Shown: in pieces, positions 3,815 to 24,299 of the stretch
Layout: each line of letters starts with the position of its first letter
Numbering within the stretch: the first letter of the stretch is position 1
Source: a virus
Reading direction: 5' to 3' (one strand)
Length of the DNA: 64,000 nt
Virus genome (UHGV): UHGV-0134778
Made by a program: the position numbers and the translations under genes
Notes under the pieces: generated by a model
Told to the model about the DNA's origin: nothing
Database searches by the model: none
What the model saw: only the letters and a program-made list of their open reading frames with translations

Positions 3815-3855
3815 TAATGTATTTTACCACAAAGATACATCAAAAGCAACAATTT

Positions 3856-4476: not shown

Positions 4477-4490
4477 TTGAAAATACCTCG

Positions 4491-4528
4491 TAAAAATAAA
4501 GCCCCATTCCTGATTTGGAAGGGGCCTT
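4491..4528 (-). terminator. putative rho-independent terminator or attenuator after the 4536-5390 gene
   Basis: On minus strand: GC stem GCCCC...GGGGC followed by TTTATTTTT, directly after the stop codon. Confidence 0.5.
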
Positions 4529-4535
4529 AACAAAA

Positions 4536-5390: not shown

Positions 5391-5471
5391 GGGACACTCC
5401 TGTTAAACCCTAATAAATAAAAAGGGGAGGGGGAGAACCCCCTCCCCATATGGGATGAATCACCTTAGTGA

Positions 5472-6479: not shown

Positions 6480-6529
6480 TTATTTCTCCAAAGTAAAACT
6501 TAAATATTTCCCGAACAATTTAGGGCTTA

Positions 6530-6916
6530 TTATTCACCAATAGTCTGGACGTGAACTTTGTTACCTAAAGCTTCCAACTTATCCAGAATTCTTTGGTCTG
6601 CTTTAGCTCCGTCTGCACCTAACAGCATATCTTTTGCAAAGGTAACACCGTGGACGGCAACAACCAGGTTATAGGACTGTCCCACTTCTAATGGTTTTGC
6701 AAGATGAACCGTACCAGCATCTTTGACAAGAGCACGGTCAACAAGAACGCCGTACACATCAGAACCGTCTGCGTTAGCGATAGTCCCAGTTTTTGTTACA
6801 ACAGTACCAGCGTGGTGATGCTCTGTCAGTGTTACCTTGATCTCTTTAAAATTGTAGCCCGCATCGCTAGAATCAACTTTGCCGAGCACGATATCAGAAT
6901 ATTGAGCGGTAATCAT
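6530..6916 (-). CDS. putative head decoration protein
   Basis: 128-aa ORF between scaffold and major capsid genes, Gly/Val/Thr-rich; assignment by position. Confidence 0.4.
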   Translation of the reverse strand: MITAQYSDIVLGKVDSSDAGYNFKEIKVTLTEHHHAGTVVTKTGTIANADGSDVYGVLVDRALVKDAGTVHLAKPLEVGQSYNLVVAVHGVTFAKDMLLGADGAKADQRILDKLEALGNKVHVQTIGE

Positions 6917-6936
6917 TTATTTCCCCCGTTAATGTC

Positions 6937-7914
6937 TTATTTGTTAGATTCTGCACGTGCACGAGCAAGTGCTTTTGCAACGTTTTCAGCAAGAATTTCT
7001 TCTGCGGATTTTGCAATATCATCCACAACAGGTTCGCCATCATTACCATGTTCAGTGGTGGCAAACTCTTCTTTGGTTTTATGCACCTCTGCTTCCAGCT
7101 CTTCAATTTTGGCTTGAGCTTTCTCCAGCATAGCTACAATAGGTTCGTTAGCTTTTTCCAGCATGAAGTCAACCAGGGTTGCATGATCTTCTTCACCAAC
7201 AAAGCTTAAAGCTTGAGCTTTAGCCAGCATTTTAGCTTTTTCAACTTCAACCTGGGCCTTGATGATTTCTTCAGCTTTACTCTGGGTTGCTTTCAGCTCT
7301 TCTACTTGCTTCAGCAGATCCAGATACTCTTTAGTTTTGGTTACGTCCACCGGATTCTCCTCGGTATTTGCGGATTTTGCAACATCATCCACCTCGGTAG
7401 TTTTATCCACCTCAGTAGGTTCCTGTACCGCCTTGATCAGGTTCCCTTCTTTATCGAAGAGATCAGCGGTTACTTGTTCAAAAATCTGTTGTGTTTTTAA
7501 CAGACTGTACTGATCTACCACACTAAGCTGCTTGCCTTCTTTTGCAGCTTTATGAATGGTCACGTTATCACAACGCTCTTCCAGCCATGCAATGCAAGAC
7601 TCTGCGTCAGCTTGTGCCCATTCCCAATCAGGATGCTCTTTAGCCCAAGCTTCCTCTTCAATCTCAAAACCAAGCATGTGTGCAAGTGCTTTGGCATCAT
7701 CATACCACATATCGAAGAAACGACGCAGGTATTCTTCAAAACTCAGCTCCACAGTAACTTGGCGAAGTGCCTTAACAATATCGTCTGTTAACTGCTCAGG
7801 CTGAAGATCACTCTTCATCAAAAGAGATACAGGTCTGTTGTTAGCGCTATAGCCTTGCGCCTTATGGCACAGGGCAATCCCCTTCTCTTTAATAGTAATC
7901 GTTTTTTCAGACAT
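6937..7914 (-). CDS. putative scaffolding protein
   Basis: 325 aa, strongly Glu/Lys/Ala-rich with heptad-like coiled-coil character; sits between protease and capsid genes. Confidence 0.5.
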   Translation of the reverse strand: MSEKTITIKEKGIALCHKAQGYSANNRPVSLLMKSDLQPEQLTDDIVKALRQVTVELSFEEYLRRFFDMWYDDAKALAHMLGFEIEEEAWAKEHPDWEWAQADAESCIAWLEERCDNVTIHKAAKEGKQLSVVDQYSLLKTQQIFEQVTADLFDKEGNLIKAVQEPTEVDKTTEVDDVAKSANTEENPVDVTKTKEYLDLLKQVEELKATQSKAEEIIKAQVEVEKAKMLAKAQALSFVGEEDHATLVDFMLEKANEPIVAMLEKAQAKIEELEAEVHKTKEEFATTEHGNDGEPVVDDIAKSAEEILAENVAKALARARAESNK

Positions 7915-8345
7915 TATTCATTGCCCTCTTCTACAACACTGATCCCGAAGTTTACGTTGGTAATTTCACCAGTTTCTTCATCAACATTACCTGTTGCCTG
8001 AATGCTTAGGCCACCAACAATGCCAGCCTTCTTAGCTTCCCATAATTCAGGATTATTGTATTTAACTTTAGCAACCCAAGAGCCAGCCTTGATGACCTGC
8101 TCAGTGCCAATTACTACAACATCAAACTCTTCTTGAATCCACGTCTTTTCAATGGTGAAAGCATCTGTGGAGGTCAAGTGGAAAAGGTTTTCAGAAACTA
8201 GGCCTGCGGCGTATGCTGCGTCCCAATTATCTTTAGCCTTTTTGATGGTGTCTTTACTCATCCACTCACCGTGAGCATCTTTAGTGTCAGGTTCGTAGAT
8301 GATTTCGTAGGAAATCATTTCTTCCTGTGGCATCTTATTCCCCAT
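7914..8345 (-). CDS. putative prohead protease (XkdF-like, S78 family)
   Basis: Segment YEIIYEPDTKDAHGEWMSKDTIKKAKDNW resembles the conserved N-terminal region of XkdF-type phage proteases; lies between portal and scaffold; start trimmed to ATG after the portal stop. Confidence 0.5.
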   Translation of the reverse strand: MGNKMPQEEMISYEIIYEPDTKDAHGEWMSKDTIKKAKDNWDAAYAAGLVSENLFHLTSTDAFTIEKTWIQEEFDVVVIGTEQVIKAGSWVAKVKYNNPELWEAKKAGIVGGLSIQATGNVDEETGEITNVNFGISVVEEGNE

Positions 8346-10059: not shown

Positions 10060-10866
10060 TTAGATAAAACGCTTGAACATAGAAGGTGATGAGATTGATG
10101 GAATCACACAAGGCAGCGCTACCTCCTCTTTCTCCAGGAAATTAATCGCAGAAGCTACACAGTCGGCCCAGTCGTCTTTTCTGTTAAATGTTGATCTTTC
10201 CCCGTTGAACTTTTCAAGTTCAGTCAGAAATGCTTCCAGAGTGTCAGGATGGAAACTGGATTTTACAATCCTCACCATTCCTTGTTGGGCAAGATTGGCA
10301 AAAGGTGAGAACCTTGTCAGTTTAGATTTGTTGGAAGGCATTGGATCTTCTTCAACCCTGAACCCTTCGGCGAGCAAGGATCTGGACGAGGTTAAGAATT
10401 CACTCTTACCTGCCTGACCGGGGTCCACAGAAAATACGATTATGCAATCATCTCCATCAAACTGCGCCTGTTTCCTGATGATCACATCTCGTTCCCCAGC
10501 CTTTTTACAGAACTTGCCTTCCAGACCTGTGGAATACCTACCGTCATCCACGTTCTCAGGACAATAATCCCCGGACAGGTAATAAAAGCCGTCGCTATCT
10601 TTACTTACCTTAACACTGGCGGTAAAGTCAGGAAATTTATTACCGGAAGTTCTCTCGGTTCCTGCCTTATCCCATGCCCTGCAAGATACTGATCCAAGAG
10701 GTACTCTATCGGCATCCCGAAGGAAAGATCTTTGGAAATAGTTTGCACCTTCAGGTTTGGCAAACCAGTTGCCATGAAGAAGCTGGGCTTTTTCAAGCTC
10801 TGGCAGACCTTCAAGGAAAGCAAGGTATTCTGGGTTGTCTCTCAAGCAGACAGGATTATCGAATCC
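10060..10866 (-). CDS. terL: terminase large subunit, C-terminal nuclease part (exon 2 or separately translated fragment)
   Basis: Open frame continues upstream of the ORF-track TTG start to a stop at about 10867; no convincing RBS of its own; acidic residues spaced as in terminase RNase-H-like nuclease domains. Confidence 0.6.
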   Translation of the reverse strand, partial: GFDNPVCLRDNPEYLAFLEGLPELEKAQLLHGNWFAKPEGANYFQRSFLRDADRVPLGSVSCRAWDKAGTERTSGNKFPDFTASVKVSKDSDGFYYLSGDYCPENVDDGRYSTGLEGKFCKKAGERDVIIRKQAQFDGDDCIIVFSVDPGQAGKSEFLTSSRSLLAEGFRVEEDPMPSNKSKLTRFSPFANLAQQGMVRIVKSSFHPDTLEAFLTELEKFNGERSTFNRKDDWADCVASAINFLEKEEVALPCVIPSISSPSMFKRFI

Positions 10867-11837
10867 TTATATTCAAGGGTGGTCGCAACACCACCCTCCG
10901 CACCATTACGTGCTGCTGCATGTTACCATGCAGAGTAGACTATATCACCACCCATCTCAGGGGTGCTTCGCTTTTCGAGCGCCATAAGCTTGCGCCCTAC
11001 TCCCTCTCGGGATAGTCGTTGAACTACATTACCAATCATAATTGTTTGAAATATAGGTGTAAGTCTTACGGTCTTTTATTCCTTTAACAACACTAAAACT
11101 TACTCCCCACTTCTTAGCTATTTTATTTACACACAAAGCCCTACCACTAAGATCCTCGCAGATACCTATTATCTTGTGCTCACTTATCCTATTAGAGGTT
11201 GGCACTTTTCTAAAGTTAAATTCTTTAGAAATATCTGGGTATACTGAGCCATTCTTTATACCACTTACAAGTGGTTGATTGACACCAAACATTTCACAAA
11301 TGTCTTTTACCCTTGCACCTTGCTCTAACAGCCTACATATTTCAAGAGCAGTGGCATCATCTAGGGACCTGTATTTATTGACATAGTCCTTTTTAAGTCC
11401 CATTTCATGAGCGTGATGTGTGTTTTCCTCAGGCGTTGTCCACTCAAGGTTCCATGCGGCGTTATTCAACTTATTGCCATCCAGGTGGTTTACTTGAGTT
11501 TTCACACTGGGGTTATCATTATCTACAAAAGTCATAGCAATAACTCTGTGGACTAGCACTTGGAACTTTTTCCCGCCCTCGCACAAAGTGACCATAGCAT
11601 AGCCAGTCTTTTTCTGCACATTAGGATGGAGGAATTTATTAGAATACAGGCTGTAAATTCTGCCATCGTATGTAGCACAATAATGATTGTAACCTAAAAA
11701 GCCTAAATTTTTCATTTCAAACATCTCCCTACTACAGGTTCGGAAGGGTAATTATAGCTGCTGATTGTCCGTTTAGCAATCGGATTTTCCAGCAATTAAC
11801 GAAGTTATTCGACGTGCATTTCTGCACGAAGCCACTA
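10867..11837 (-). mobile_element. putative group I intron carrying an HNH homing endonuclease gene, inserted in the large terminase gene
   Basis: About 970 nt separate the ATPase and nuclease halves of terL; GC-rich hairpin-forming sequence flanks a free-standing HNH ORF; exact splice sites not determined. Confidence 0.5.
11029..11724 (-). CDS. HNH homing endonuclease
   Basis: 231 aa with HNH_3-like motif (QVNHLDGNKLNNAAWNLEWTTPEEN) and a C-terminal DNA-binding-like region; embedded between the terL halves. Confidence 0.7.
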   Translation of the reverse strand: MFEMKNLGFLGYNHYCATYDGRIYSLYSNKFLHPNVQKKTGYAMVTLCEGGKKFQVLVHRVIAMTFVDNDNPSVKTQVNHLDGNKLNNAAWNLEWTTPEENTHHAHEMGLKKDYVNKYRSLDDATALEICRLLEQGARVKDICEMFGVNQPLVSGIKNGSVYPDISKEFNFRKVPTSNRISEHKIIGICEDLSGRALCVNKIAKKWGVSFSVVKGIKDRKTYTYISNNYDW

Positions 11838-13375: not shown

Positions 13376-13645
13376 TTATCGAGGCACTCGGTGGATGATT
13401 CTGACAGTAACCGCATTCTCATTCATCAAGTAAGCATCCACATCTCTGTAAATATAAAACTTCTGCTCGCTATCAACAACACAAGCTACTGCCCCTTCAG
13501 AGTTGTCTTCAAAGAAGACCACAACTGCATCGCAGCTTAGTTCATGATACGACTCTCGAAGATTTACAGCAAGAGGGTTGAAATCGTCACGAAGATCTAA
13601 AGTATGGGTTGGATTTACACGTTCTACAATTTTAAGTGTATACAT
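13376..13645 (-). CDS. hypothetical protein
   Basis: 89-aa ORF between the tRNA cluster and the spanin genes. Confidence 0.45.
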   Translation of the reverse strand: MYTLKIVERVNPTHTLDLRDDFNPLAVNLRESYHELSCDAVVVFFEDNSEGAVACVVDSEQKFYIYRDVDAYLMNENAVTVRIIHRVPR

Positions 13646-13691
13646 TTTAAAGGTTCCTTTTGTGTGTATATATTTAAAGTATAACTAAAGG

Positions 13692-13768
13692 TGGTCTCCA
13701 CGGAGTGATTCGAACACTCGACCTCCTGATCCCAAATCAGGCGCTCTACCAAGCTGAGCTACGCGGAG
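13692..13768 (-). tRNA. tRNA-Pro (anticodon TGG)
   Basis: Hand-folded cloverleaf: 7-bp acceptor stem, D arm GCTC/GAGC, anticodon loop TTTGGGA, T loop TTCGAAT, encoded CCA. Confidence 0.85.
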
Positions 13769-13779
13769 TATTTATTATT

Positions 13780-13854
13780 TGGTGGCCCTGGGTGGAATTG
13801 AACCACCGTCTGGCGATTATGAGTCGCTTGCTTGAACCTTCCAGCTACAGGGCC
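13780..13854 (-). tRNA. tRNA-Met (anticodon CAT; elongator type, could be lysidine-modified Ile2)
   Basis: Acceptor GGCCCTG/CAGGGCC, anticodon loop CTCATAA, T loop TTCAATT, encoded CCA; G1-C72 pair argues against initiator. Confidence 0.8.
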
Positions 13855-13855
13855 A

Positions 13856-13931
13856 TGGTGCTGATGGCAGGACTTGAACCTGCAACCTATTGATTACAAA
13901 TCAATTGCACTGCCAATTGTGCTACATCAGC
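13856..13931 (-). tRNA. tRNA-Thr (anticodon TGT)
   Basis: Perfect 7-bp acceptor stem GCTGATG/CATCAGC, anticodon stem-loop ATTGA-TTTGTAA-TCAAT, T loop TTCAAGT, encoded CCA. Confidence 0.85.
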
Positions 13932-13935
13932 AAAA

Positions 13936-14034
13936 GGTGCTAGGTGATGGAATCGAACCACCTATGTATTCAACGACTACCTCGTCTATTTTCAGGATTA
14001 AAAATCCTCGCCCTTGCCAAAGGGCTTACCTAGC
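13936..14034 (-). tRNA. atypical tRNA-like element (99 nt): possible non-canonical tRNA or tRNA pseudogene
   Basis: Perfect 7-bp acceptor stem (GCTAGGT/ACCTAGC), canonical D arm and T arm (GGTGG-TTCGATT-CCATC), but A8-A9 instead of U8, an AGGATT-TTT-AATCCT hairpin in place of a standard anticodon arm, and a ~31-nt insert containing a second hairpin; no CCA encoded. Confidence 0.35.
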
Positions 14035-14132
14035 GCAATATGTTGACCATGTGGCTAGTCGGCGATGACGACTGTAACATTTGATAATCCGGTTCTGCTT
14101 CCGGCTTTCGCTTAATTACAAGGTCAACAATG

Positions 14133-14223
14133 TGGCGGAGAGTAATGGAATCGAACCATCATCGAGTCATCCTCAACGGGACGGTTTTCAAGACCGCTTG
14201 AGCACCATTGCTCCCTACCCTCC
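14133..14223 (-). tRNA. tRNA-Ser (anticodon TGA), class II with long variable arm
   Basis: Acceptor GGAGGGT/ACTCTCC with one G-U pair, anticodon stem-loop GCGGT-CTTGAAA-ACCGT, ~20-nt variable arm, T loop TTCGATT, encoded CCA. Confidence 0.8.
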
Positions 14224-14337
14224 TTTATAAATTACACTGATAATGACACTGATTTTCGAGCAGTTAGTGACTAGTATAAACGACGATAAATATCAATGTC
14301 ATTATCTGTATGATTTATGCATTTAAAAATATAAATT

Positions 14338-14424
14338 TGGTGGGGAGTGGTGGAGTCGAACCACCCGAGTCGCAATGACAATAGATTTACAGTCTACACC
14401 GCTACCTCTACGGGATAACTCCCC
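14338..14424 (-). tRNA. tRNA-Tyr (anticodon GTA), class II
   Basis: Acceptor GGGGAGT/ACTCCCC, anticodon stem-loop GTAGA-CTGTAAA-TCTAT, variable arm, T arm GGTGG-TTCGACT-CCACC, encoded CCA. Confidence 0.8.
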
Positions 14425-14428
14425 AATT

Positions 14429-14503
14429 TGGCACCCCGTACTGGACTCGAACCAGTGTCAACGGCTTAGAAGGCCGCTGCTTTATCCACTAAGCTAACAG
14501 GGC
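14429..14503 (-). tRNA. tRNA-Arg (anticodon TCT)
   Basis: Acceptor GCCCTGT/ACGGGGT with two G-U pairs, D arm GCTT/AAGC, anticodon stem-loop GCGGC-CTTCTAA-GCCGT, T arm ACTGG-TTCGAGT-CCAGT, encoded CCA. Confidence 0.8.
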
Positions 14504-14599
14504 ACTGGGTGGCTTTCTTTTACACCTGAGCCGCCAGAAAAGGTGGGAGACCATGTTTATAATATTACACTGTTAGGCAAAGTTTGTCAAGAAAATATT

Positions 14600-14938
14600 T
14601 TAACTATTGCCAACAGGCTGTATTTCTGTGGTAAATGGCATAAAAGGTGCTGGTTTTTCAGCCTCTTCTACTACCACCTCTTCCTCTTCACCAAACATCT
14701 CATCATATTCTTCCTGCATTCGGTCTGCCTTATCAAGAACATACTCTGCAATGCTTTGACGAATATTTTGTTTGGTTTTCGGGTCCAACATCAGCTCTCT
14801 TAAAACTTTGTGAGCTTCTGGAACCATCGCTATAAAAGATTCCTTCATATCAAGAATGTTCTTCTCTAGCTGAATGGCGTTGGACTCCTCTTTCAGAGGT
14901 CTGCCTCTACGGCGACGCTTTTTAGTTGTATCCGCCAT
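14600..14938 (-). CDS. hypothetical basic/acidic protein, possible DNA-binding (KKRRRRGRP N-terminus)
   Basis: ORF-track ORF trimmed to the ATG (MADTTKK...) preceded by GGAGG; Arg/Lys-rich N-terminus with RGRP AT-hook-like motif and acidic C-terminus. Confidence 0.5.
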   Translation of the reverse strand: MADTTKKRRRRGRPLKEESNAIQLEKNILDMKESFIAMVPEAHKVLRELMLDPKTKQNIRQSIAEYVLDKADRMQEEYDEMFGEEEEVVVEEAEKPAPFMPFTTEIQPVGNS

Positions 14939-14966
14939 GTTTCCTCCATTATCACGTGATAGGTGG

Positions 14967-14995
14967 ATTTTATCACGGCAAATACTGATTGTCAA
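14967..14995 (-). promoter_or_regulatory. sigma70-like promoter for the 14600-14938 gene, with a 10-bp palindrome downstream
   Basis: On minus strand TTGACA-N17-TAAAAT; perfect palindrome ATCACGTGAT (14951-14960) lies between the -10 element and the RBS. Confidence 0.5.
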
Positions 14996-15283
14996 GTTCG
15001 CCGCAGGGTGGTATTCCCTGCGACTTGCCCAGCGTCCTGGACCAGCAAGACCCAACAAGTGGGTTACCAGATACCCATTACCGCGCTCTGGCTCGACCTT
15101 ATTACAGGTTGGCTGGGGTCACATCGTCATGTGCTGGCTGCCCCTACCATTTTAAGTGTGGTGCACTATCAAGCCCTCTAAGGGGAACTCAGACTTCTCC
15201 GAACCCTGTTTCAAAGCATCCGGAGATAAAGCCATCAAACTCATCTTTAAATTGGATATTCATCATGATACACGAAAACAACC

Positions 15284-15526
15284 TCATTGTAAAGCACAAA
15301 TAAATAAAACATACTTAATTTGTTTGTTATCGGGCTCAGGGTAGAAGTAGAAGATCTTGCTATCACCAATCTGAACACCACCATCCCAACAACATAAACC
15401 ATAACCAGTATTCATACAAGCTAAGTCGTTGGCAAAATCTATTGCATCATCTAGTGCACGAAATTCACCTTCATCTTCTAAATAATCCTCATTCATGGAA
15501 CGGAAAACGAGCTTAACCTTAAACAT
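15284..15526 (-). CDS. hypothetical protein
   Basis: 80-aa acidic ORF. Confidence 0.45.
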   Translation of the reverse strand: MFKVKLVFRSMNEDYLEDEGEFRALDDAIDFANDLACMNTGYGLCCWDGGVQIGDSKIFYFYPEPDNKQIKYVLFICALQ

Positions 15527-15602
15527 AGCATTACCTGTAGACCTCGTAAGTTAAAATTGTATCACATCATATTGCAGATCTTATCAGGTAACATTATTTT
15601 TG

Positions 15603-15791
15603 TCAACAGATTCCGGCCTTATCCTTCCTGTCTGCGTATTCTTTAATCGCAACCTCACCTGCATTGGTAACCAGATCTTCAAAGTAATTCTCAAGCTCCT
15701 CGTCAATGTCCGGTGACCAGCTCTTTTTCCTGTCAGTGTGAATTGCAGACTTGTTGAACTTATTACAATTCTTTGCTACCGGATTGTTCAT
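15603..15791 (-). CDS. hypothetical protein
   Basis: 62-aa ORF in co-directional array. Confidence 0.3.
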   Translation of the reverse strand: MNNPVAKNCNKFNKSAIHTDRKKSWSPDIDEELENYFEDLVTNAGEVAIKEYADRKDKAGIC

Positions 15792-15801
15792 TAAGCTCTC
15801 C

Positions 15802-16380
15802 TCAACGTTCGTAGTAAATCTTATTCAACATTACCTCATCGTTTGCAGAAAGGATATCAAGATATGCATCACCAAATCTGCCTGCAACAACCTCTGCATG
15901 ATACATCACTTCGTTAACATCGTCAAGAGTGATAACAGGATGACCATATCTTTCTGAATATTGTCTCAGTGTGCGATGCAACGAGTCGTCATCATATGCA
16001 GACTTTTTAATATCACAAACACGACGAATGGCCTTGATGTCGAAAAAACCTGTGCGATACCACCCAAGAAAAAAGTTCCGTGTAGTGTCAACATCTACAT
16101 CAATACCATTAAGAACCTTATCTACAAGATAGCTGTCATCCTTTGGACTAGCGTCCTTAGTGCGAATGTAGTTGCCATCTTTTCCAGGTGATAGCTCCTT
16201 CTCATCACCAACCTGCATGCCATCATTTGGCGGTGTTAGCCACTTATCAGGATGCTTACGATCACGAGCGTTAGAATGATTACGCTGGAAACCTGGCTTC
16301 CACTTGAAAGTTTTCTCCATCTGTTCTTCATTCTGATAACGTTTTGCAATCTTTTCACTGGCATCTTTGCGTGAACTCAT
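15802..16380 (-). CDS. hypothetical protein
   Basis: 192-aa ORF; no recognised motif. Confidence 0.5.
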   Translation of the reverse strand: MSSRKDASEKIAKRYQNEEQMEKTFKWKPGFQRNHSNARDRKHPDKWLTPPNDGMQVGDEKELSPGKDGNYIRTKDASPKDDSYLVDKVLNGIDVDVDTTRNFFLGWYRTGFFDIKAIRRVCDIKKSAYDDDSLHRTLRQYSERYGHPVITLDDVNEVMYHAEVVAGRFGDAYLDILSANDEVMLNKIYYER

Positions 16381-16884
16381 AGCAGCCTCCTCTTCAAGTT
16401 ATAGAAAAACTCACTGTATCGCTTTGTAACGAGCTTTTCTATCAAACTGGTGCGATTGCCTTACTTGGTATAGTTTATATAGCTGTGGAGCGATTTAGGG
16501 GACTTCTTGTCAGTTTCCACACATAACTTTATCCGAACTCGCGCGGGAGGCTCTCAACCGACTCCTTCCGGCGCTGGCAAGCTTTCGTCGGTGGTCCACA
16601 TTAGTGCTCGGCCTTTGGCCTGCGCTATCGCTTCGCTCCCACACATGTTAACAGTCCTGCATGTATGCACTTCTGTTATTGTGTGCACTATGGAGGCCCG
16701 GCATCTCGCCCCCCCCGTAGGCGAGTGCCAATGAAGGGCCGACACTACCCATAATAAGTAATAAATTTAAAACATGGTACTTAGGATCTAGTATATTCTA
16801 CATAAGTTAAGTATATGTACTTTAGTACCATAAGTACTAGATCTTTTATTTTTATTATTTAGTTATTTTAGTTATATTCTTTAT

Positions 16885-16970
16885 GTGTCCGTATCACGGA
16901 CAGTTAGTGTCCGTATTACGGGCAGATGTGTCCGCGTGACGGACAGTAGTGTCCGTATCACGGACAGTTA
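16885..16970. repeat. iteron-like array: four tandem 21-22 bp repeats, each with the palindromic core TGTCCGTATCACGGACA
   Basis: Copies at about 16885, 16907, 16928 and 16949 (GTGTCCGTATCACGGACAGTTA and close variants); immediately preceded by an AT-rich tract at ~16790-16880. Confidence 0.8.
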
Positions 16971-17041
16971 CTAACCTCTGTTCCAGAGTGAACATAAAAC
17001 ATACAAATCCTTATAGTACAGATGTTTAAGTTTTTACTGGT

Positions 17042-17392
17042 CTAACCAGTTGTTGACATTCGAATAACTTCTTCTGGTGGCAAAACTTTGGAAAATGTGC
17101 ATCTTTTACCTCTCCCTTGTGTGGATATTTCAACCACTCCTGCACATTCTAAAGTTTTAACGCACGCTGCTGCTTTTGTTTTCTTTATCCCAACATCTGC
17201 TGCAATTTTCCTTGTGCTTGGTGTGAAGCGTGAATTTTCTCCAAGCTTATACCAGTTGTGCAGGTAGCAGTATACGATCTTGTCATATAAGTCAAGAACA
17301 ACAACCTCCCCAGTTGTGTCATTCAAAACTTTTGACATAGACAGTATTTCAAGGGGGACTTTAAGATATAGCAGCTTATCCCCATCTTTCAT
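17042..17392 (-). CDS. putative HTH DNA-binding protein
   Basis: 116 aa; segment TRKIAADVGIKKTKAAACVKTLECAGVVEI has a helix-turn-helix-like pattern; AGGAGA RBS; gene ends ~70 bp from the iteron array. Confidence 0.45.
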   Translation of the reverse strand: MKDGDKLLYLKVPLEILSMSKVLNDTTGEVVVLDLYDKIVYCYLHNWYKLGENSRFTPSTRKIAADVGIKKTKAAACVKTLECAGVVEISTQGRGKRCTFSKVLPPEEVIRMSTTG

Positions 17393-17439
17393 ATCTCCTG
17401 ATTCTCCTTGTGTGGCAATTTTCTTTAAAATAGCAGGGA

Positions 17440-17994
17440 TTACTCCCCGCTGTCAATAGCAAGACTCATTGCAATACGGTATGCCTCTTCTAATGGTAAG
17501 AGTCTCCCCCACACATCCCAACCGACATCAAACTGCCTGCCAAACAACTGCTGTGTGGTTCCGTGAGCATGACCGAACAGTTGGACTGATCCGTGAGGCT
17601 TTCTGTTCCACTTTGCAAACTGGTAATGGCTCATACAGATCAAATTCTTGTTGTGGCGAAGCTCGTAATAATCTACAACCTCATGACCGAACTCTTTCAT
17701 AATTCTGACAGTCGTCCTTGTGTCATGGTTACCACGAACAAGAATAATATGTCCGTTCAACATATTTAGAACATCTGGAAGCAATTTGTTGATATTCTTA
17801 TCATTAGTGCACGCAATATCCCCCAAGTGAAACACAGTGTCTGCAGGTGACACAACAGAGTTCCACTTGGTGATGATTCCCGCATTCATACTGTCAAGAT
17901 TGTGATCATACTGAGATCTGTGTTTTTGACATGAGTCGAACTCCATTACCCGCTGGTGGAGAAAGTGTGTGTCGCTTGTTACAAAGTATTTCAT
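17440..17994 (-). CDS. calcineurin-like metallophosphoesterase (candidate RNA end-healing 2',3' phosphatase or Ser/Thr phosphatase)
   Basis: Motifs DxH (SDTHF), GDIA, GNHD and downstream His residues characteristic of binuclear metallophosphoesterases; start trimmed to MKYF with GAGGAA RBS. Confidence 0.6.
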   Translation of the reverse strand: MKYFVTSDTHFLHQRVMEFDSCQKHRSQYDHNLDSMNAGIITKWNSVVSPADTVFHLGDIACTNDKNINKLLPDVLNMLNGHIILVRGNHDTRTTVRIMKEFGHEVVDYYELRHNKNLICMSHYQFAKWNRKPHGSVQLFGHAHGTTQQLFGRQFDVGWDVWGRLLPLEEAYRIAMSLAIDSGE

Positions 17995-18001
17995 ACATTC
18001 C

Positions 18002-18412
18002 TCATTTAAGTTTAATGCAGTTTTTAAGCTGGCGTTCCATACGATCCACAACCCTGTCTGGAACATCATGAATGCTTTTATTACCATGGCGGTTTTCAAC
18101 CACGATCACGGTATAACTATATCCATGACTGATCGCCATGTCAATATATTCTTGCACATATTTTTCTTTTGTAAACGTATTACTTACCACGATACGGTCG
18201 TAGCCCATACGCATCATATCTTCTACGTTATCTTTGCACCATTTTGCTGCAAGTGTTACTTTACTTGCATCCCAATTGTAATTGCCGTCATCGTCGTACC
18301 AGAACATATCGTTCTCAAAATGTGGATACAGACCTTCTAAAGATAGCGCATTTGCCAGTGTTGATTTGCCAGACCCTGGTAGACCACGCACGATATATAG
18401 CATTTTAGACAT
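18002..18412 (-). CDS. polynucleotide 5'-kinase-like P-loop kinase
   Basis: Walker A GLPGSGKST plus IVVSNT segment resembling the T4 Pnk kinase domain (CPGSGKST ... ISDTN); start trimmed to MSKMLYIVRG. Confidence 0.55.
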   Translation of the reverse strand: MSKMLYIVRGLPGSGKSTLANALSLEGLYPHFENDMFWYDDDGNYNWDASKVTLAAKWCKDNVEDMMRMGYDRIVVSNTFTKEKYVQEYIDMAISHGYSYTVIVVENRHGNKSIHDVPDRVVDRMERQLKNCIKLK

Positions 18413-18533
18413 AGTAACTCTCCGTTTTAATTTTAATGATAGTATACCTAACTGTTTTGTTAATTTCAAGTGTTGACACCAAGTTATTTGTGTGGCAGGA
18501 TAAAGGGACAAAATGACAAATGAGGAATGTATA

Positions 18534-19448
18534 ATGAAGTATTTTAATGCAGACGACCTAGTTGACAAAGGTCTTGTAACCAGCAGATATTACCCGGATC
18601 TTGGGTTAAAGATCTATAAATATGCCAGAAAAGTATTCTACAACAATTTATGGCATTTGTCTCCTCGTTTGCTGGAGTGCCGAGGCATTGTTGTCGGTAA
18701 TGAAGGAAATGTTGTGGCATGGCCCTTCACAAAAGTGTTTAACTTGGGAGAAAATTCCACCAACCTGCCTGACAATAAACTTGTGACGGCGGTAGAGAAA
18801 AAGAACGGATTCCTTGGTGTGGTATCATCTCATAAAGGTGAACTATTGTTCTCAACAACCGGGTCTCTTGATTCTCCATATTGTAACCTTGCAAAGGAAA
18901 CAATCCAGGAGCAATGTGGTAATTTAGATCTTATCAAGAGGGTTATGGGCCATGAAAACATGACATTCATGTTTGAAATTTGTCACCCTTCAGATCCGCA
19001 TATTGTTCAGGAAGATCATGGCGCATATTTGATAGGTTGCAGATATAATGATTCTGGAATAATGCTACCAGAAGCAGCTTTAGATGGGATTGCCAAATAC
19101 CTTGGTGCAAAACGTCCTCACACTGTGCGTGAAATTCCGTTCAGCTATGCAAAAGAATTAGCTGCAGAAACAAGAGGTGAAGGGTATATGATTCGTAAGC
19201 CTTACTACCCTTATGATCTGCAGCTGAAGATCAAGTCTCCATACTATTTGGCACGGAAGGCCGTAATGAGGGGTAAAGCTTGGAAGATTTGGGATGATGA
19301 TATCTTTAAACGTGTTGACGAAGAGTTTTATGGCATGGTAAACTTCATTCGTAGCAATTACACAGAAGATGTGTGGAACTGCCTCCTGGAGCAAGAACGT
19401 CGTGAGATACTTGACTGCTATTTCCACAACGAGGACTATATGCAATGA
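18534..19448 (+). CDS. putative RNA ligase (covalent nucleotidyltransferase superfamily)
   Basis: Ligase motif I KxNG (EKKNGFLG), motif IV-like EGYMIRK, motif V-like LKIK; ~300 aa, too small for a DNA ligase and a separate DNA ligase gene exists; start at second ATG with GAGGAA RBS (ORF-track start 18513). Confidence 0.5.
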   Translation: MKYFNADDLVDKGLVTSRYYPDLGLKIYKYARKVFYNNLWHLSPRLLECRGIVVGNEGNVVAWPFTKVFNLGENSTNLPDNKLVTAVEKKNGFLGVVSSHKGELLFSTTGSLDSPYCNLAKETIQEQCGNLDLIKRVMGHENMTFMFEICHPSDPHIVQEDHGAYLIGCRYNDSGIMLPEAALDGIAKYLGAKRPHTVREIPFSYAKELAAETRGEGYMIRKPYYPYDLQLKIKSPYYLARKAVMRGKAWKIWDDDIFKRVDEEFYGMVNFIRSNYTEDVWNCLLEQERREILDCYFHNEDYMQ

Positions 19449-19795
19449 AGAAGTTGATTGTGTGGCTGGATGACTTGAGAGATCCGTCAAATTATGGGCT
19501 CCCAGATGCTCTTTGGCTAAAGAATTCCTCTGAGTTTATGGATTTTATTAACGATAAGGGAAAGCTCTACAGGCGCGTTTCTGAGTGGCACATGGACAAC
19601 GATCTTGGAGAGGTATTTGAAGGGTACGATTGCCTATCTATGTTGGAGGAAAAATTTGTATTTGGTAAGCCTCCTGTAGTTGACAACGTGAAGATTTTCG
19701 TGCATACTTCTAACCCATCAGCGGCTCGTAAATTCATGATTGCTGCTGACTCGTTTAAAAAGTTTGGAATAGAGATTAAACAAAACATCTACTGA
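19445..19795 (+). CDS. hypothetical protein
   Basis: 116-aa ORF overlapping the ligase stop; no motif recognised. Confidence 0.45.
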   Translation: MKKLIVWLDDLRDPSNYGLPDALWLKNSSEFMDFINDKGKLYRRVSEWHMDNDLGEVFEGYDCLSMLEEKFVFGKPPVVDNVKIFVHTSNPSAARKFMIAADSFKKFGIEIKQNIY

Positions 19796-19803
19796 GGACA
19801 CTT

Positions 19804-20565
19804 ATGCGACGACTGATCATTATCTCCGGTGCTGGTTTGAGCGCTGAATCTGGTATCCCCACTTTCCGATCTGGTGGCACTGCAATGTGGGAGAATTTCA
19901 GCATCGATGAGGTGTGTAACATCCACACCTTTGCCAAGAACTACTATAAGGTGCATGACTTTTACAATGCACGGCGTGTAGCTCTGGGCAGTGTTGATCC
20001 TAACCTTGCACATCTCCGGATCGCTGAGTGGTATTCACGCTGGTCTGGTCGTGTGATCAACCTGACAACCAATGTAGATGATTTGCTGGAGCGTGCTGGT
20101 GTAAAACATGAAGATATTTTACATGTCCACGGATATTTGCCAGAAATAGTCTACGAGGATGATGAAGGGAGTAACGTCATTAAAGACATTGGATACTCTG
20201 AGGTAGACGCAAGCAAGTATACTTGGGTTAAGCCTAATGTAGTGTTTTTCGGAGAAGTAGCTCCAAAGTATACAGACATGTATGACCTGTTGACTTCTCT
20301 GACGAGCAATGATATGGTTATCCTTGTAGGGTGCTCCAACACAGTTATCAATTTTAACTGGGAGCTATTCCCTGCCTGTAATAAGGGAACCAAACTGCTG
20401 ATCGTTAACAAATACGACTCACAGCATTTAGGGGAGAATGGCATTTCACGTAGTGACATTTACCAGTATGAGGATCGCGGCATCCCAGTTTGGTTTAACG
20501 GGGCGGTTGACGCTTTCTCTGATAAAACATTTATTGACATCGTAGAAAACTTTATGGAACTGTAA
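19804..20565 (+). CDS. Sir2-family (sirtuin-like) NAD-binding protein
   Basis: Canonical sirtuin motifs GAGLSAESGIPTFR, TTNVDDL, catalytic His in HVHG, VVFFGE; no Cys-rich zinc ribbon visible between the HG and FGE motifs. Confidence 0.8.
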   Translation: MRRLIIISGAGLSAESGIPTFRSGGTAMWENFSIDEVCNIHTFAKNYYKVHDFYNARRVALGSVDPNLAHLRIAEWYSRWSGRVINLTTNVDDLLERAGVKHEDILHVHGYLPEIVYEDDEGSNVIKDIGYSEVDASKYTWVKPNVVFFGEVAPKYTDMYDLLTSLTSNDMVILVGCSNTVINFNWELFPACNKGTKLLIVNKYDSQHLGENGISRSDIYQYEDRGIPVWFNGAVDAFSDKTFIDIVENFMEL

Positions 20566-20579
20566 GCGGAGGCCTTTTA

Positions 20580-21293
20580 ATGCTGAATACTAAACTGATC
20601 GACAACCTGGAAAAACTGTCTCAGCCTGAAAACTACCTTTGGTCTGCCAACTGGGTGGAAAATTGGAACCGTGTAGCAGCTAAAGTGAAAAAATCATACA
20701 CACCATTCGAACTTCAGCTGAGTTTCATTGAGGAAGAGTTCAATGAAGTTTTGGAAGAGTTGGAGAAAGGTGATGGTGGGGATCATCTCCTAAAAGAGGC
20801 CTGCGATCTTCACGTTGTCACAAGTTATGCCGCTTATCTTGTTAACGATAACCATGAAAAGTGGTCAAACCTGTTTGATAATCCGCGAGGTCTTAAGTTT
20901 AAGATCGGTGAATTTTATGATACACTGATCGCTGCGAAAAATACCTCTAAGCAAAGAGCGTCTGCTTACCGCTTAGCAGAGCTGTCAACGGCTTTACTGT
21001 TCCAGCTTCGCGGTGATGTGTGCGGGATGATGCGGAAGGTTCTAAAATCTAATGACAGCAAGTTTGCACGTGTCAACCATCTGCGGCATTCACACGGTGC
21101 CAGTGCAGATATGCCTGCTGAACAACTCATCGAGTTGGAGATTAAAGATCTTGAGCGACGCTTTGATGGTCGCTATGAAGGTTTTGTTGCTAAAGAAGAA
21201 TTCTACAACGGAAATAAAGTTATCATATTCCTCGACAGTAAAGGTAAGATTATGAAGCCTTCAAGCTTCAAGGATGTAACAGAATATATTTAA
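20580..21293 (+). CDS. hypothetical protein, possible MazG-like nucleotide pyrophosphohydrolase fold
   Basis: Acidic EExxE-like helix (FIEEEFNEVLEELEKGD) reminiscent of MazG/HisE all-alpha NTP pyrophosphatases; weak. Confidence 0.3.
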   Translation: MLNTKLIDNLEKLSQPENYLWSANWVENWNRVAAKVKKSYTPFELQLSFIEEEFNEVLEELEKGDGGDHLLKEACDLHVVTSYAAYLVNDNHEKWSNLFDNPRGLKFKIGEFYDTLIAAKNTSKQRASAYRLAELSTALLFQLRGDVCGMMRKVLKSNDSKFARVNHLRHSHGASADMPAEQLIELEIKDLERRFDGRYEGFVAKEEFYNGNKVIIFLDSKGKIMKPSSFKDVTEYI

Positions 21294-21299
21294 TAACAT

Positions 21300-21320
21300 A
21301 GCCGGGGCGATCCCGGCTTT
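21300..21320 (+). terminator. putative terminator hairpin
   Basis: GCCGGG-gcgat-CCCGGC followed by TTT, directly after the stop codon. Confidence 0.45.
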
Positions 21321-21357
21321 ACTTGTTTCGGAAAGTATGCAAGTGAGGTAGAAAGTT

Positions 21358-21666
21358 ATGTACAAGCACTCCAGAGATCTTGAAAACGATGATGTGTTTG
21401 GGGATCAGATGAAAGAATTGGTTAAACTTATAGGTAGGATAGAGGATAAGTTTGACACTAAGATCTACATCGACAGCAAAGTATTCAACCACAAAATATG
21501 GACAAATCTGTGTGTTGGACTGCATGGAGATAAAGATGTGGTAAATTTAGTTGTAATTAAGTTCATAGTGTGGCAGAATAAAACTATAAATTATTACGAT
21601 CCACACCTACTTGTTTACCCGATAAAAGACCTATTAGAGAAGGAGGACTGCAATGCCGTTATTTAA
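21358..21666 (+). CDS. hypothetical protein
   Basis: 102-aa ORF. Confidence 0.45.
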   Translation: MYKHSRDLENDDVFGDQMKELVKLIGRIEDKFDTKIYIDSKVFNHKIWTNLCVGLHGDKDVVNLVVIKFIVWQNKTINYYDPHLLVYPIKDLLEKEDCNAVI

Positions 21667-21922
21667 TCTTGCTAGACCTGTAGAAGCACACCAGTTTGAC
21701 GGAAGCTCTTCATCAGTATCTGATCTGCAACGGTGGATTGATACAGGTGTGTTTACACCGTCACCTGTTCGGACCAGAGATATTCTTCGCATGTGTGAGC
21801 TTGTCGAGCCGTTTGGTAACCTGGTCTTGTACCAAGGGGATTGGTTAGTTGACTTTATGGGAGACTGGTTGGTAATGAGCAAAGAAGAGATGTTTAAAAT
21901 TTTTAAGGAAGAGGCTGAGTAA
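21653..21922 (+). CDS. hypothetical protein
   Basis: 89-aa ORF with short overlaps to both neighbours. Confidence 0.4.
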   Translation: MPLFNLARPVEAHQFDGSSSSVSDLQRWIDTGVFTPSPVRTRDILRMCELVEPFGNLVLYQGDWLVDFMGDWLVMSKEEMFKIFKEEAE

Positions 21923-23205
21923 TGCATCAGATCAAAACAACACTGTACGCACTGAACAAAGATGGCAGCTACCAACAGTGGAAAGTATTCACGGATGGTG
22001 ATAAGGTTATCGTAGAGTTTGGCAAGCTTGATGGTAAACTGCAATACAAAGAGACGATCTGCACACCTAAGAACGTGGGTCGTGCCAATGAAACTACAGC
22101 TGAGCAACAGGCTGAGCTGGAAGCGATCAGTAAGTGGGAAAAACAAGTCCGTCTGGGGTATGTTGAAAATATGGAAGATTGCGAGCAGGGTGTTGACCTT
22201 TTACCCATGTTGGTGCATGACTACCTGAAGCGTGGAAAGGCACTTAAATTACCTTGCTGGATTTTGCGTAAGTTAGATGGCCTTCGTCTACTGGTTGTTT
22301 TCCAAAACGGTGAGCCTAAATTTATTTCCCGTGGTAATAAGTCCTACCCTATTCAAGGAAAGCTTCTGGAGCAACTTCGTTCTTTCCACTTCACCACCGG
22401 GATTAAACAGCTCGACGGAGAGATCTATATTCATGGTCTGCCTCTGCAGAAAATAGTGTCTCTTGCTAAACGTTGGCGCACACAGGAAGAGATTCAGGCC
22501 GAGATCGATAAAGACTACGAGGCAGATAAAAAACGCCGTCATGCCGCAATTAAGGCAGGCTTATCAACATACAAAAACTTCAATAAGGTAGATATTCCTG
22601 TTGATGTTGAGCCTGTTCGTGATGATTTGCGTTACGGAGGGTACTGTAGCTATGACTTAGAGTATCATATTTTCGACATCCCTAGTGACAAGGTATGGTG
22701 GGATCCAGAAACAGAATCTGGACGATGCAAGGATCTTATGGATGCAGAAGATACCATTACCACCCTGATGCTTGACCATATCAAGGTTGTTGACGCAGAG
22801 CTTGCGTACACAGTTGATCATTGCGAAGAATCTGTTGGTGTATTCATGTCCGAAGGATATGAAGGTACTATCATGCGTAACTTCTGCGGTAAATATGAAT
22901 ATGGTCAGCGAACATCTGAAGCATTGAAATGGAAAAAGTTCAACGATGCTGAGGTGAAAGTTATTGACGTTGAGAAAGATAAGAATGATGAAGGTGTTCT
23001 TATCTGCGTTGACAAGGAAGGTATCGTTGTTAAAATGAAGATGAAAGGCACGCACGAGGAGCGTAGCTATGACAGGATGCAGGAAATGATCGGCAAGTTT
23101 GTCACCTTCAAATATCAAGCAAGGACAGAAGACAACAACTACCAATTCCCTGTCGGCATCTGCGTCCGAAATGTTAACCCTGACACTTGGGAGGTTCTGG
23201 AATGA
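21922..23205 (+). CDS. ATP-dependent DNA ligase
   Basis: Motif I KLDG (ILRKLDGLR), motif III-like FDIPS, motif IV EGTIMR, motif V LKWKKF, followed by an OB-fold-sized C-terminal region. Confidence 0.7.
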   Translation: MHQIKTTLYALNKDGSYQQWKVFTDGDKVIVEFGKLDGKLQYKETICTPKNVGRANETTAEQQAELEAISKWEKQVRLGYVENMEDCEQGVDLLPMLVHDYLKRGKALKLPCWILRKLDGLRLLVVFQNGEPKFISRGNKSYPIQGKLLEQLRSFHFTTGIKQLDGEIYIHGLPLQKIVSLAKRWRTQEEIQAEIDKDYEADKKRRHAAIKAGLSTYKNFNKVDIPVDVEPVRDDLRYGGYCSYDLEYHIFDIPSDKVWWDPETESGRCKDLMDAEDTITTLMLDHIKVVDAELAYTVDHCEESVGVFMSEGYEGTIMRNFCGKYEYGQRTSEALKWKKFNDAEVKVIDVEKDKNDEGVLICVDKEGIVVKMKMKGTHEERSYDRMQEMIGKFVTFKYQARTEDNNYQFPVGICVRNVNPDTWEVLE

Positions 23206-23329: not shown

Positions 23330-23800
23330 ATGAAACTTGATAAAAATGTTCAACGAAAAGCTTTCTTGGATATGATCGCATATTCAGAAGGTACAGATAA
23401 TGGTAGACAACCTACCAAGGATCGGGGCTATGATGTCATAGTCGGTGGCAAGCTGTTTAGCGATTACAGTAAGCATCCAGGTGTGTACGTTAAGCTAAAT
23501 GCTAAACTTACCTCCTCTGCTGCGGGGCGCTACCAAGTTTTGGAGAAGTTTGCTAAACACTATATGAAACAGTTAGGATTACCAGATTTTGGCCCTGCCA
23601 GTCAGGATAAGATCGCACTACAATTGATCCGTGAGTGCAAGGCGCTCGATGATATTGATGAAGGTCGTATTCATCAGGCCATCCATCTTTGCAGATCCCG
23701 ATGGGCAAGCCTTCCTGGTGCAGGGTATGGTCAGCACGAACAGAAGATCGAAAAGTTGATCGAGGTGTTTAAAAAGTCAGGCGGTGTTGTCCTAGATTAA
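23330..23800 (+). CDS. endolysin, lambda R-type lytic transglycosylase
   Basis: Near-collinear similarity to lambda R as recalled (QRKAFLDM...SEGTDNGRQ...GYDVIVGG...WASLPGAGYGQ). Confidence 0.9.
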   Translation: MKLDKNVQRKAFLDMIAYSEGTDNGRQPTKDRGYDVIVGGKLFSDYSKHPGVYVKLNAKLTSSAAGRYQVLEKFAKHYMKQLGLPDFGPASQDKIALQLIRECKALDDIDEGRIHQAIHLCRSRWASLPGAGYGQHEQKIEKLIEVFKKSGGVVLD

Positions 23801-23803
23801 TCA

Positions 23804-23832
23804 TTGACATGACCACACGGATGTGGTATTGT
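23804..23832 (+). promoter_or_regulatory. sigma70-like promoter with palindromic spacer
   Basis: TTGACA-N17-TATTGT; spacer contains the palindrome CCACA-CGGA-TGTGG. Confidence 0.6.
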
Positions 23833-23863
23833 TACCCAGTAAAATGTTAAGGAGAGTTTAACC

Positions 23864-24070
23864 ATGAAAGATTTTCTGTTGGCAATTTTATTCATGGCAG
23901 CATGCTTTGCCTGTGGTGTCGTGTTTGCAGGTGAAACAGCGTATCTTGTAGATGTATATCGGGACAATGGTAAACGTATTTGCCTTTATGAAACAAGCCA
24001 AGGTGAGCTCTACGAGCTTGTGAAACAAGGCGAGGCTGGATCTTGTCCTCGGACTCACTTCTTCGAATAA
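23864..24070 (+). CDS. small membrane or secreted protein (possible lysis-associated)
   Basis: 68 aa with hydrophobic N-terminal segment LLAILFMAACFACGVVFA; directly downstream of endolysin; GGAG RBS. Confidence 0.45.
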   Translation: MKDFLLAILFMAACFACGVVFAGETAYLVDVYRDNGKRICLYETSQGELYELVKQGEAGSCPRTHFFE

Positions 24071-24080
24071 TGGTGGTAAT

Positions 24081-24299
24081 ATGGCTTTAGAAGGCACTGA
24101 TTATATTCACGATTATCGTGGGAGTGCAGTGTATGTGGGAGATACTGTTGCAGTATACTACGGTTATGGTTCCCTAGAAACAGCGAAGGTCATACAGATC
24201 AAGAATGACCGTGCTAAGCTTGAAGTTTATTACTCTAATGGCGAAAGATCGATTTCTAAGTGGAAAGATGGTCATTGTATGGTCAAATTGGAGGGCTGA
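24081..24299 (+). CDS. hypothetical protein
   Basis: 72-aa ORF. Confidence 0.4.
   Translation: MALEGTDYIHDYRGSAVYVGDTVAVYYGYGSLETAKVIQIKNDRAKLEVYYSNGERSISKWKDGHCMVKLEG

Follow-up and report, generated by a model that had tools for sequence, protein, structure and literature searches.

Which reaction does a sirtuin encoded by a bacteriophage carry out, and does the gene that follows it take part? The question is raised by two adjacent open reading frames (ORFs) in the UHGV virus genome UHGV-0134778, from which a stretch of 64,000 nucleotides (the window) was analysed computationally. A first-pass annotation made from the sequence of the window had recognized a Sir2-family protein of 253 amino acids (hereafter Sir2) and a MazG-like ORF (ORF2) directly after it, and the Pfam SIR2 match and the ORF positions bore this out. 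Sir2 is a divergent member of the class III sirtuins in which the zinc ligands were lost secondarily, and its RNA-repair context is the strongest clue to its function. It does not resemble the defence-type NADases and is probably not a housekeeping deacetylase. We tentatively favour a role as an enzyme that consumes nicotinamide adenine dinucleotide (NAD+) in a phage operon for the repair of RNA (tRNA) breaks, as an analogue of Tpt1. Sir2 and the motifs discussed below are located as follows:

19804 to 20565, plus strand: Sir2-family protein, 253 amino acids (ORF; Pfam, PHROG, PDB and fold matches)
19828 to 19869, plus strand: NAD-binding motif GAGLSAESGIPTFR, residues 9–22 (sequence)
19960 to 19977, plus strand: FYNARR, residues 53–58, the class III anion-binding Y-x-x-R (SIRT5 and CobB alignments)
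20065 to 20085, plus strand: TTNVDDL, residues 88–94, with N90 and D92 of the catalytic pocket (sequence, alignments)
20128 to 20133, plus strand: catalytic His109-Gly110 (family-invariant; aligns with HG of CobB and SIRT5)
20134 to 20247, plus strand: Cys-free beta-hairpin in the position of the zinc ribbon, residues 111–148 (sequence, alignments, AlphaFold2 model)

The sole Pfam family matched by the Sir2 ORF was SIR2 (PF02146), which covered profile positions 1–178 of 180 with 94.3 bits against a cut-off of 24; because the E-value is 1.1e-26, a chance resemblance to sirtuins is ruled out. PHROG 2162 matched at E = 9e-109. The best sequence matches in the PDB by phmmer were SIRT5 (E = 5e-21) and CobB (E = 7e-21), with sequence identities of 28–30%. 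An AlphaFold2 model was computed from 59 homologues (predicted local distance difference test score, pLDDT, 89.9; predicted template modelling score, pTM, 0.89), and its top 50 Foldseek matches were all canonical sirtuins (E. coli CobB, Af1 Sir2, SIRT5), led by E. coli CobB (E = 1.6e-18, template modelling (TM) scores of 0.75/0.83). By sequence and by predicted fold, Sir2 is closest to the class III deacylases E. coli CobB and SIRT5. CobB-type deacylase models also ranked first in NCBIfam, yet at less than half of their cut-offs (best score 120.9 bits against 243; CobB equivalog 102.3 against 320), and the curated cut-off was not reached.

The sirtuin motifs had been described as textbook in the first-pass annotation, and all of them are present, but TTNVDDL departs from the canonical TQNID, which reads TTNVD in the phage clade with T in place of Q. 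The residues for NAD+ cleavage are invariant in the 59 homologues, namely G-A-G-x-S, F21/R22, N90, D92, H109, E151 (the FGE motif occupies residues 149–151), S178 and N202; S16, G17, F21 and R22 of the NAD-binding motif are among the invariant positions. FYNARR is identical to the CobB sequence, and FYxxRR is kept in 120 of the 120 best Sir2 homologues; we take its Y54/R57 pair to be equivalent to Y102/R105 of SIRT5. The substrate-staple V-Y-P of CobB is replaced in the phage clade by an invariant VINFNWELFP. Sir2 thus has in common with E. coli CobB and human SIRT5 (PDB 1s5p, 6rxq, 3riy) a Rossmann fold with a small domain (TM 0.75–0.85) and the elements GAGxS, N/D, HG, FGE and FYNARR, whereas it differs in the missing zinc cysteines, in TTNVD for TQNID and VINF for VYP, and in a gene context of RNA repair instead of metabolism. 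The protein is strongly acidic, with an isoelectric point (pI) of 4.9 and a net charge of about -13, and the family as a whole is acidic too (median pI 5.1).

That no zinc module is visible between HG and FGE, as had been noted from the sequence, was confirmed. Sir2 contains only three cysteines (C38, C177, C192), none of them within the 38 residues from HG to FGE, and the ligand positions are deleted or substituted relative to both Sir2-Af2 and CobB. In the alignment with Sir2-Af2, the first CxxC lies opposite a gap and the second CxxC is substituted; in that with E. coli CobB, another residue replaces the first Cys, the CHCC-bearing segment is deleted, and the ribbon region is 7 residues shorter than that of CobB. 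DSSP assigned to the model a hairpin with strands at residues 110–118 and 124–128 (pLDDT 94–97), and G130-Y131 is conserved. Among the 120 best homologues, 70 have no cysteine between HG and FGE, 48 have one, two have two and none has four, and the stretch is likewise Cys-free in the more distant sirtuins of jumbo phages and vibriophages. The assignment as a class III sirtuin with secondary loss of the zinc ligands follows from the CobB/SIRT5 matches, the canonical fold matches and the lack of a SIR2_2 or PADLOC match. Zinc-less phage sirtuins have been described before: Skliros et al. 2016 (PMC5107563) reported that the zinc ligand site is absent from Sir2/CobB of the KVP40-like vibriophages phiSt2 and phiGrn1, counted the T5 homologue among the related proteins, and suggested that the finger, lacking zinc, is stabilised by salt bridges. 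Those proteins are phage-encoded, CobB-like and zinc-less as is Sir2, but the phage group and the gene context differ. Sir2La, considered as a possible zinc-less precedent, was discarded, as the preprint does not support it.

From the missing zinc module, the first-pass annotation had drawn a link to NAD+-depleting defence effectors, which our comparisons do not support. The SIR2_2 defence NADases (ThsA, DSR1/2, Sir2-HerA, SPARSA; also FAM118) lack the module too, and this feature alone does not define a family. No SIR2_2 match was found in the Pfam scan of the Sir2 ORF, and no defence sirtuin occurred among the top 50 Foldseek matches. A PADLOC scan of Sir2, ORF2 and the neighbouring cyclic-phosphate processing receiver protein (cREC) gave nothing meaningful (only a 13-bit, 34-residue match to PDC-S65). 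Nor is a sensor or partner (SLOG, HerA, pAgo or a long C-terminal domain) fused or adjacent to Sir2, which stands alone with its 253 amino acids. As the fold search also prefers canonical sirtuins, with SIRT5 and CobB first in the PDB sequence search and CobB first in Foldseek, a relationship to ThsA, DSR or Sir2-HerA was dropped. Sir2, which would cleave NAD+ as the SIR2_2 defence NADases do, differs from them in lying within a repair operon of a lytic phage and in having no sensor or oligomerisation partner. The profile and structure comparison that had been proposed for choosing between deacetylase-like and NADase-like clades gave a divided answer, in that the best matches are of the CobB type and the zinc module is not intact.

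The same matches bring up an alternative in which Sir2 would be a CobB/SIRT5-like protein lysine deacylase, possibly a desuccinylase or demalonylase, that remodels host or phage protein acylation in the infected cell; activation of acetyl-CoA synthetase, proposed for vibriophage sirtuins, would be one example. CobB, Af1 Sir2 and SIRT5 are the closest relatives in sequence and structure, the FYNARR motif is that of CobB, neither the catalytic His nor the NAD pocket has been lost, and protein substrates would suit an acidic enzyme. Skliros et al. 2016 (PMC5107563) argued for such an enzyme in vibriophages, an acetyl-lysine deacetylase that activates Acs, from modelling and transcript profiling only. 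Against a deacylase, the scores fall far under every NCBIfam CobB cut-off (e.g. 102 against 320 bits), the peptide-staple V-Y-P is replaced, and the zinc module has been lost throughout the clade; Baretic et al. 2025 (PMC12700824) reported that canonical sirtuins need this module for deacetylation and that SIR2_2 proteins are without it. A deacylase would also leave unexplained the linkage to RNA-end-processing genes in three gene contexts, which is set out below, and we regard it as unlikely.

The region 19445–21700 of the window matches 121 phage records, nearly all of them rV5/FV3-type Vequintavirus genomes, and among these Escherichia phage NHEP1 reaches an identity of 99.1% and phage FV3 one of 97.9%; the window DNA and rV5/FV3-type genomes are 94–99% identical. 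In the matched records, the Sir2 ORF is labelled 'Sir2 (NAD-dependent deacetylase)' and ORF2 'nucleotide pyrophosphohydrolase', and phage vB_EcoM-ECP32 annotates a protein 100% identical to Sir2. Of 50,697 phage records, 1013 (about 2%) carry a homologue of Sir2; the classic phage T5 is one of them, and so are many coliphages that are candidates for therapy and many phages of Salmonella and Klebsiella. The genes around Sir2 are the following:

18513 to 19448, plus strand: T4 Rnl1-family RNA ligase, which opens the four-gene unit (Pfam RNA_lig_T4_1, E = 1.1e-14; 'RNA ligase 1' in FV3)
19445 to 19795, plus strand: cREC, 116 amino acids (Pfam PF20274, E = 4.8e-14)
20580 to 21293, plus strand: ORF2, all-alpha NTP pyrophosphatase superfamily protein of 237 amino acids with a C-terminal beta-hairpin (family members and fold)
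20727 to 20810, plus strand: acidic putative metal-binding motifs of ORF2, IEEEFNEVLEE (residues 50–60) and KEACDL (residues 72–77) (sequence; alignment with the HisE EExxE...D helix pair)
21300 to 21318, plus strand: terminator-like hairpin after the four-gene unit (8-bp stem with 6 GC pairs and a T-rich tail; consensus match only)
18002 to 18412, minus strand: divergent P-loop kinase, AAA_33/Zeta-toxin-like (Pfam AAA_33, E = 9.7e-10; start codon from the FV3 annotation)
17440 to 17994, minus strand: divergent calcineurin-like phosphoesterase (Pfam Metallophos/Metallophos_2, E ~4e-6; PDB 1xm7, E = 7e-11)

The pair of Sir2 and ORF2 had been placed directly after RNA-repair-like genes, a context treated there as incidental, and these are indeed an Rnl1-like ligase and cREC. 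Ligase, cREC, Sir2 and ORF2 form a tightly packed unit with a 4-nt overlap (the cREC start overlaps the ligase stop codon, ATGA) followed by gaps of 8 and 14 nt; both Sir2 and ORF2 are preceded by a Shine-Dalgarno sequence (GAGGA and GGAGG, respectively). The kinase and the phosphoesterase are transcribed divergently from this unit, and the kinase is presumed to be a 5'-OH polynucleotide kinase. The arrangement had already been recognized by Iyer, Burroughs, Anantharaman and Aravind 2022 (Viruses 14:1977, PMC9503650), who distinguished three neighbourhood types and made Escherichia phage V5 the prototype for the one found here; their type 2 ('Escherichia phage V5 / Proteus phage Mydo') comprises sirtuin, ligase, cREC, kinase, MazG-superfamily and phosphoesterase genes, and all six lie within 17440–21293, so that the window is a member of this type without substantive difference. 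PDB sequence searches meant to tell repair of the T4 type from that of the Trl1 type were uninformative: the ligase had no match, the kinase only a marginal one to 1zp6 (E = 0.088), and for the phosphoesterase a single hypothetical protein, 1xm7, came up.

We compared 61 loci, comprising 60 IMG/VR viral contigs and the FV3 record. Linkage of the sirtuin to RNA-end-healing genes recurs in three independent gene contexts, two of them in this set and the third in jumbo phage PHA46, described further below. The same module was found in 12–14 of the 61 loci in the order phosphoesterase, ligase, cREC, kinase, Sir2, DNA ligase, one ORF and MazG-like gene; because the gene order in these loci is different, direct adjacency of Sir2 and the MazG-like gene is specific to the rV5/FV3 lineage. 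In Mydo/phi92-like phages, the DNA ligase gene comes directly after the sirtuin gene, with overlapping sirtuin stop and ligase start. Twenty-seven loci were of the T5 type, with a HAD_SAK_2 'Swiss-army-knife RNA repair' phosphatase within ~1 kb after the sirtuin. In T5 itself, T5.102 is the orthologue of the zinc-less sirtuin (58% identical to Sir2) and T5.105 matches HAD_SAK_2 at E = 4e-20; RefSeq mislabels this RNA-repair phosphatase as a second 'Sir2'. Downstream of T5.105 come two DUF7415 proteins in tandem, conserved in at least 27 T5-type loci; the stretch from T5.102 to T5.107 corresponds to 5448–7928 of the T5 locus. About 20 of the 61 loci had no recognisable RNA-repair neighbour, and in one of these (L060) a NAMPT gene lies directly upstream of the sirtuin. 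Pfam scans of the neighbours in these ~20 loci gave mostly no matches, and no fourth conserved context could be defined among them.

Several lines of evidence lead us to favour a Tpt1-like role in RNA repair, quite possible in our view, over a protein deacylase and over a NADase or anti-defence role. These are the packing of the operon with its terminator-like hairpin and divergent kinase and phosphoesterase, the repeated and independent association with genes for RNA end healing, an NAD-cleavage site that is intact, the retention of the Y54/R57 anion-binding pair in all 120 close homologues, and the loss of the protein-substrate module. Loss of the zinc module together with replacement of V-Y-P by VINFNWELFP suggests that the acceptor has changed. 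Sirtuin and Tpt1 chemistry are alike in that an oxygen nucleophile attacks C1'' of NAD+, after which the ribose 2''-OH attacks the acceptor centre, and because of this parallel between established mechanisms the catalytic His of the sirtuin could serve the second step. Sir2 would then remove the 2'-phosphate of RNA at the expense of NAD+ within tRNA break repair, and cREC and the pyrophosphatase (MazG-like here, Nudix in jumbo phages) may clear the resulting ADP-ribose cyclic phosphate. Like Tpt1/KptA, Sir2 is associated with genes for RNA ligase and for the processing of cyclic phosphates, whereas Tpt1/KptA has an ADP-ribosyltransferase fold and Sir2 an acidic protein with the sirtuin Rossmann fold; we propose that it is a functional analogue and not a family member. 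The role is further supported by a tRNA cluster 3 kb away and by Iyer et al. 2022 (PMC9503650), who predicted from gene neighbourhoods that the sirtuin removes RNA 2'-phosphates like KptA/Tpt1; their main text is silent on the absence of zinc ligands, on the class III ancestry and on the acidic charge. The idea of an RNA-acting sirtuin was thus published as a prediction in 2022, and that the phage protein is the first sirtuin to act on RNA we consider doubtful.

A number of observations weigh against this role. A pI as low as 4.9 is unusual for an RNA-binding enzyme, and Y-x-x-R is inherited unchanged from CobB and so fits a desuccinylase too. In the jumbo-phage branch, R57 (the first Arg of FYNARR) is Leu, as seen in the sirtuin of Salmonella jumbo phage PHA46, and Y-x-x-R is thus not universal among these relatives. 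About a third of the loci (~20 of 61) are those without an RNA-repair neighbour. Healing of the T4 type, by a 3'-phosphatase and Rnl1, leaves no 2'-phosphate, and a need to remove one hinges on cREC yielding a 2'-PO4, which is itself only predicted; moreover, E. coli has its own KptA. Our literature searches on phage sirtuins, T5.102 and rV5 Sir2 retrieved annotation-level or in-silico papers only, with no experiments on any member. The NARP3 paper is unrelated to the sirtuin gene of the window.

PHA46, whose locus was obtained separately from the 61-locus set, bears on a further alternative, in which Sir2 would be a NAD+ glycohydrolase or another NAD or ADP-ribose anti-defence enzyme that depletes or re-routes host NAD+, or that acts with cREC and the pyrophosphatase on immune signals derived from ADP-ribose or consisting of cyclic nucleotides. 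The gene order in PHA46 (3513–6001 of its locus for the genes around the sirtuin) is NAMPT, Acb1-like 2H protein, Sir2, one ORF, Nudt16-like Nudix protein and cREC, and the Nudix pyrophosphatase occupies the place held by the MazG-like pyrophosphatase in the window. The set of sirtuin, cREC and pyrophosphatase might here act on immune signalling nucleotides and not on RNA ends: the gene directly upstream of the sirtuin, annotated as 'RNA ligase', matches the anti-CBASS Acb1 family of 2H phosphodiesterases (PF23474, E = 1.7e-16), and Nudix and cREC follow. NAMPT, 2 kb upstream of the sirtuin in PHA46 and beside it in L060, implies a release of nicotinamide worth recycling. Sir2 lacks zinc as do the SIR2_2 defence NADases, and the phage uses an ATP-dependent DNA ligase and is therefore less NAD+-dependent. 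Set against this, no likeness to defence sirtuins emerged from Pfam, PADLOC or the top 50 fold matches, the enzyme has no sensor or partner domain, and an operon with an RNA ligase and an adjacent kinase indicates RNA repair. To our knowledge, the known immune signals do not contain the nicotinamide-ribose bond that sirtuins cleave. Manipulation of NAD+ or anti-defence, which had also been considered in the first-pass annotation, has less support than RNA repair, and we judge it quite improbable.

ORF2 had been called MazG-like for an EExxE acidic helix, and the motifs IEEEFNEVLEE and KEACDL agree with this at the level of the superfamily. ORF2 itself gave no Pfam match at E < 0.01, and its superfamily placement for that reason rests on family members and fold. 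A profile search among 1.8 billion proteins retrieved 164 representatives with E-values down to 1e-35, which makes for a small family; 50 of 70 aligned members matched Pfam PRA-PH (HisE) and 16 of 70 matched MazG, and no dUTPase family was among the seven Pfam families matched by members. The family profile matched HisE 1yvw at E = 0.007, and PHROG 671 'nucleotide pyrophosphohydrolase' matched ORF2 at E = 1e-21. The ORF2 model (pLDDT 94.6) is an all-alpha bundle with a C-terminal beta-hairpin; conserved acidic residues in the helical bundle follow the EExxE ... ExxD pattern of the superfamily, and invariant residues include E53, D76, N158, K161, K223 and K226. ORF2 is MazG/HisE-like by sequence and dimeric-dUTPase-like by predicted fold, which supports the MazG-like reading at the superfamily level. 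It differs from the dimeric dUTPases and MazG/HisE proteins of the superfamily of Moroz et al. 2005 in its C-terminal beta-hairpin with the invariant K223/K226.

ORF2 could also be independent of the sirtuin, as a dUTPase/dCTPase-like sanitiser of the nucleotide pool for DNA replication that adjoins Sir2 only in the rV5/FV3 lineage. This is possible, though we lean away from it: ORF2 closes the ligase-cREC-Sir2 unit ahead of the terminator-like hairpin, a MazG-like gene lies inside the same module in all 12–14 module loci, jumbo phages put another pyrophosphatase (Nudix) in the equivalent position, and family members match HisE and MazG with no dUTPase among the seven Pfam families.

If the sirtuin removes RNA 2'-phosphates, this would be a new class of sirtuin reaction and a non-orthologous displacement of Tpt1, and it would explain phage resistance to tRNA-cleaving defences. 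As a deacylase or a NADase, the sirtuin would instead be a tool of host remodelling, and either outcome would matter to phage biology. The literature and GenBank annotation already cover the gene and its neighbourhood, the role predicted for it and the existence of zinc-less phage sirtuins. Modestly new are the class III ancestry with an identical FYNARR, the clade-wide loss of cysteines, the confidently modelled hairpin, the acidic charge of Sir2 and, for ORF2, the fold resembling that of dimeric dUTPases.

Other features of the window were observed in and around the repair module. At ~18 kb, transcription diverges and the GC skew flips its sign, with several promoter-like sites on both strands between kinase and ligase. 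The mechanically called kinase ORF of 188 amino acids (18002–18568, minus strand) overlaps the ligase start at 18513, and the annotated form of 136 amino acids starting at 18412 is more plausible. An ATP-dependent DNA ligase is encoded near the module at 21922–23205 (plus strand). Upstream of the module lie tRNA genes:

13692 to 14503, minus strand: cluster of seven tRNAs or tRNA-like elements, six of them for Pro, Met, Thr, Ser, Tyr and Arg and the seventh an odd one (ARAGORN, Rfam)

This cluster is located 3 kb upstream of the repair module, and the FV3 record annotates only five of its members. The odd element (13936–14034, 99 nt) was given a 4-nt anticodon (atcc) by ARAGORN and scored 35.5 bits with the Rfam tRNA model against a gathering score of 29. 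Between a minus-strand hypothetical gene and the 'replication initiation protein', 660 bp (16381–17041) contain no gene-length ORF, and FV3 has the same gap; an Rfam scan of 13400–17500 found tRNAs only and nothing in this gap. When 23800–24260 of the window is compared with 10394–11077 of the FV3 locus, FV3 has an HNH endonuclease gene between endolysin and a small membrane protein that appears to be missing from the window, which would be a presence/absence difference of a homing endonuclease. Between 18 and 25 records named 'Campylobacter phage' (e.g. C15, MG065654) are ~92% identical to the region, and rV5-type genomes under such a name are surprising.

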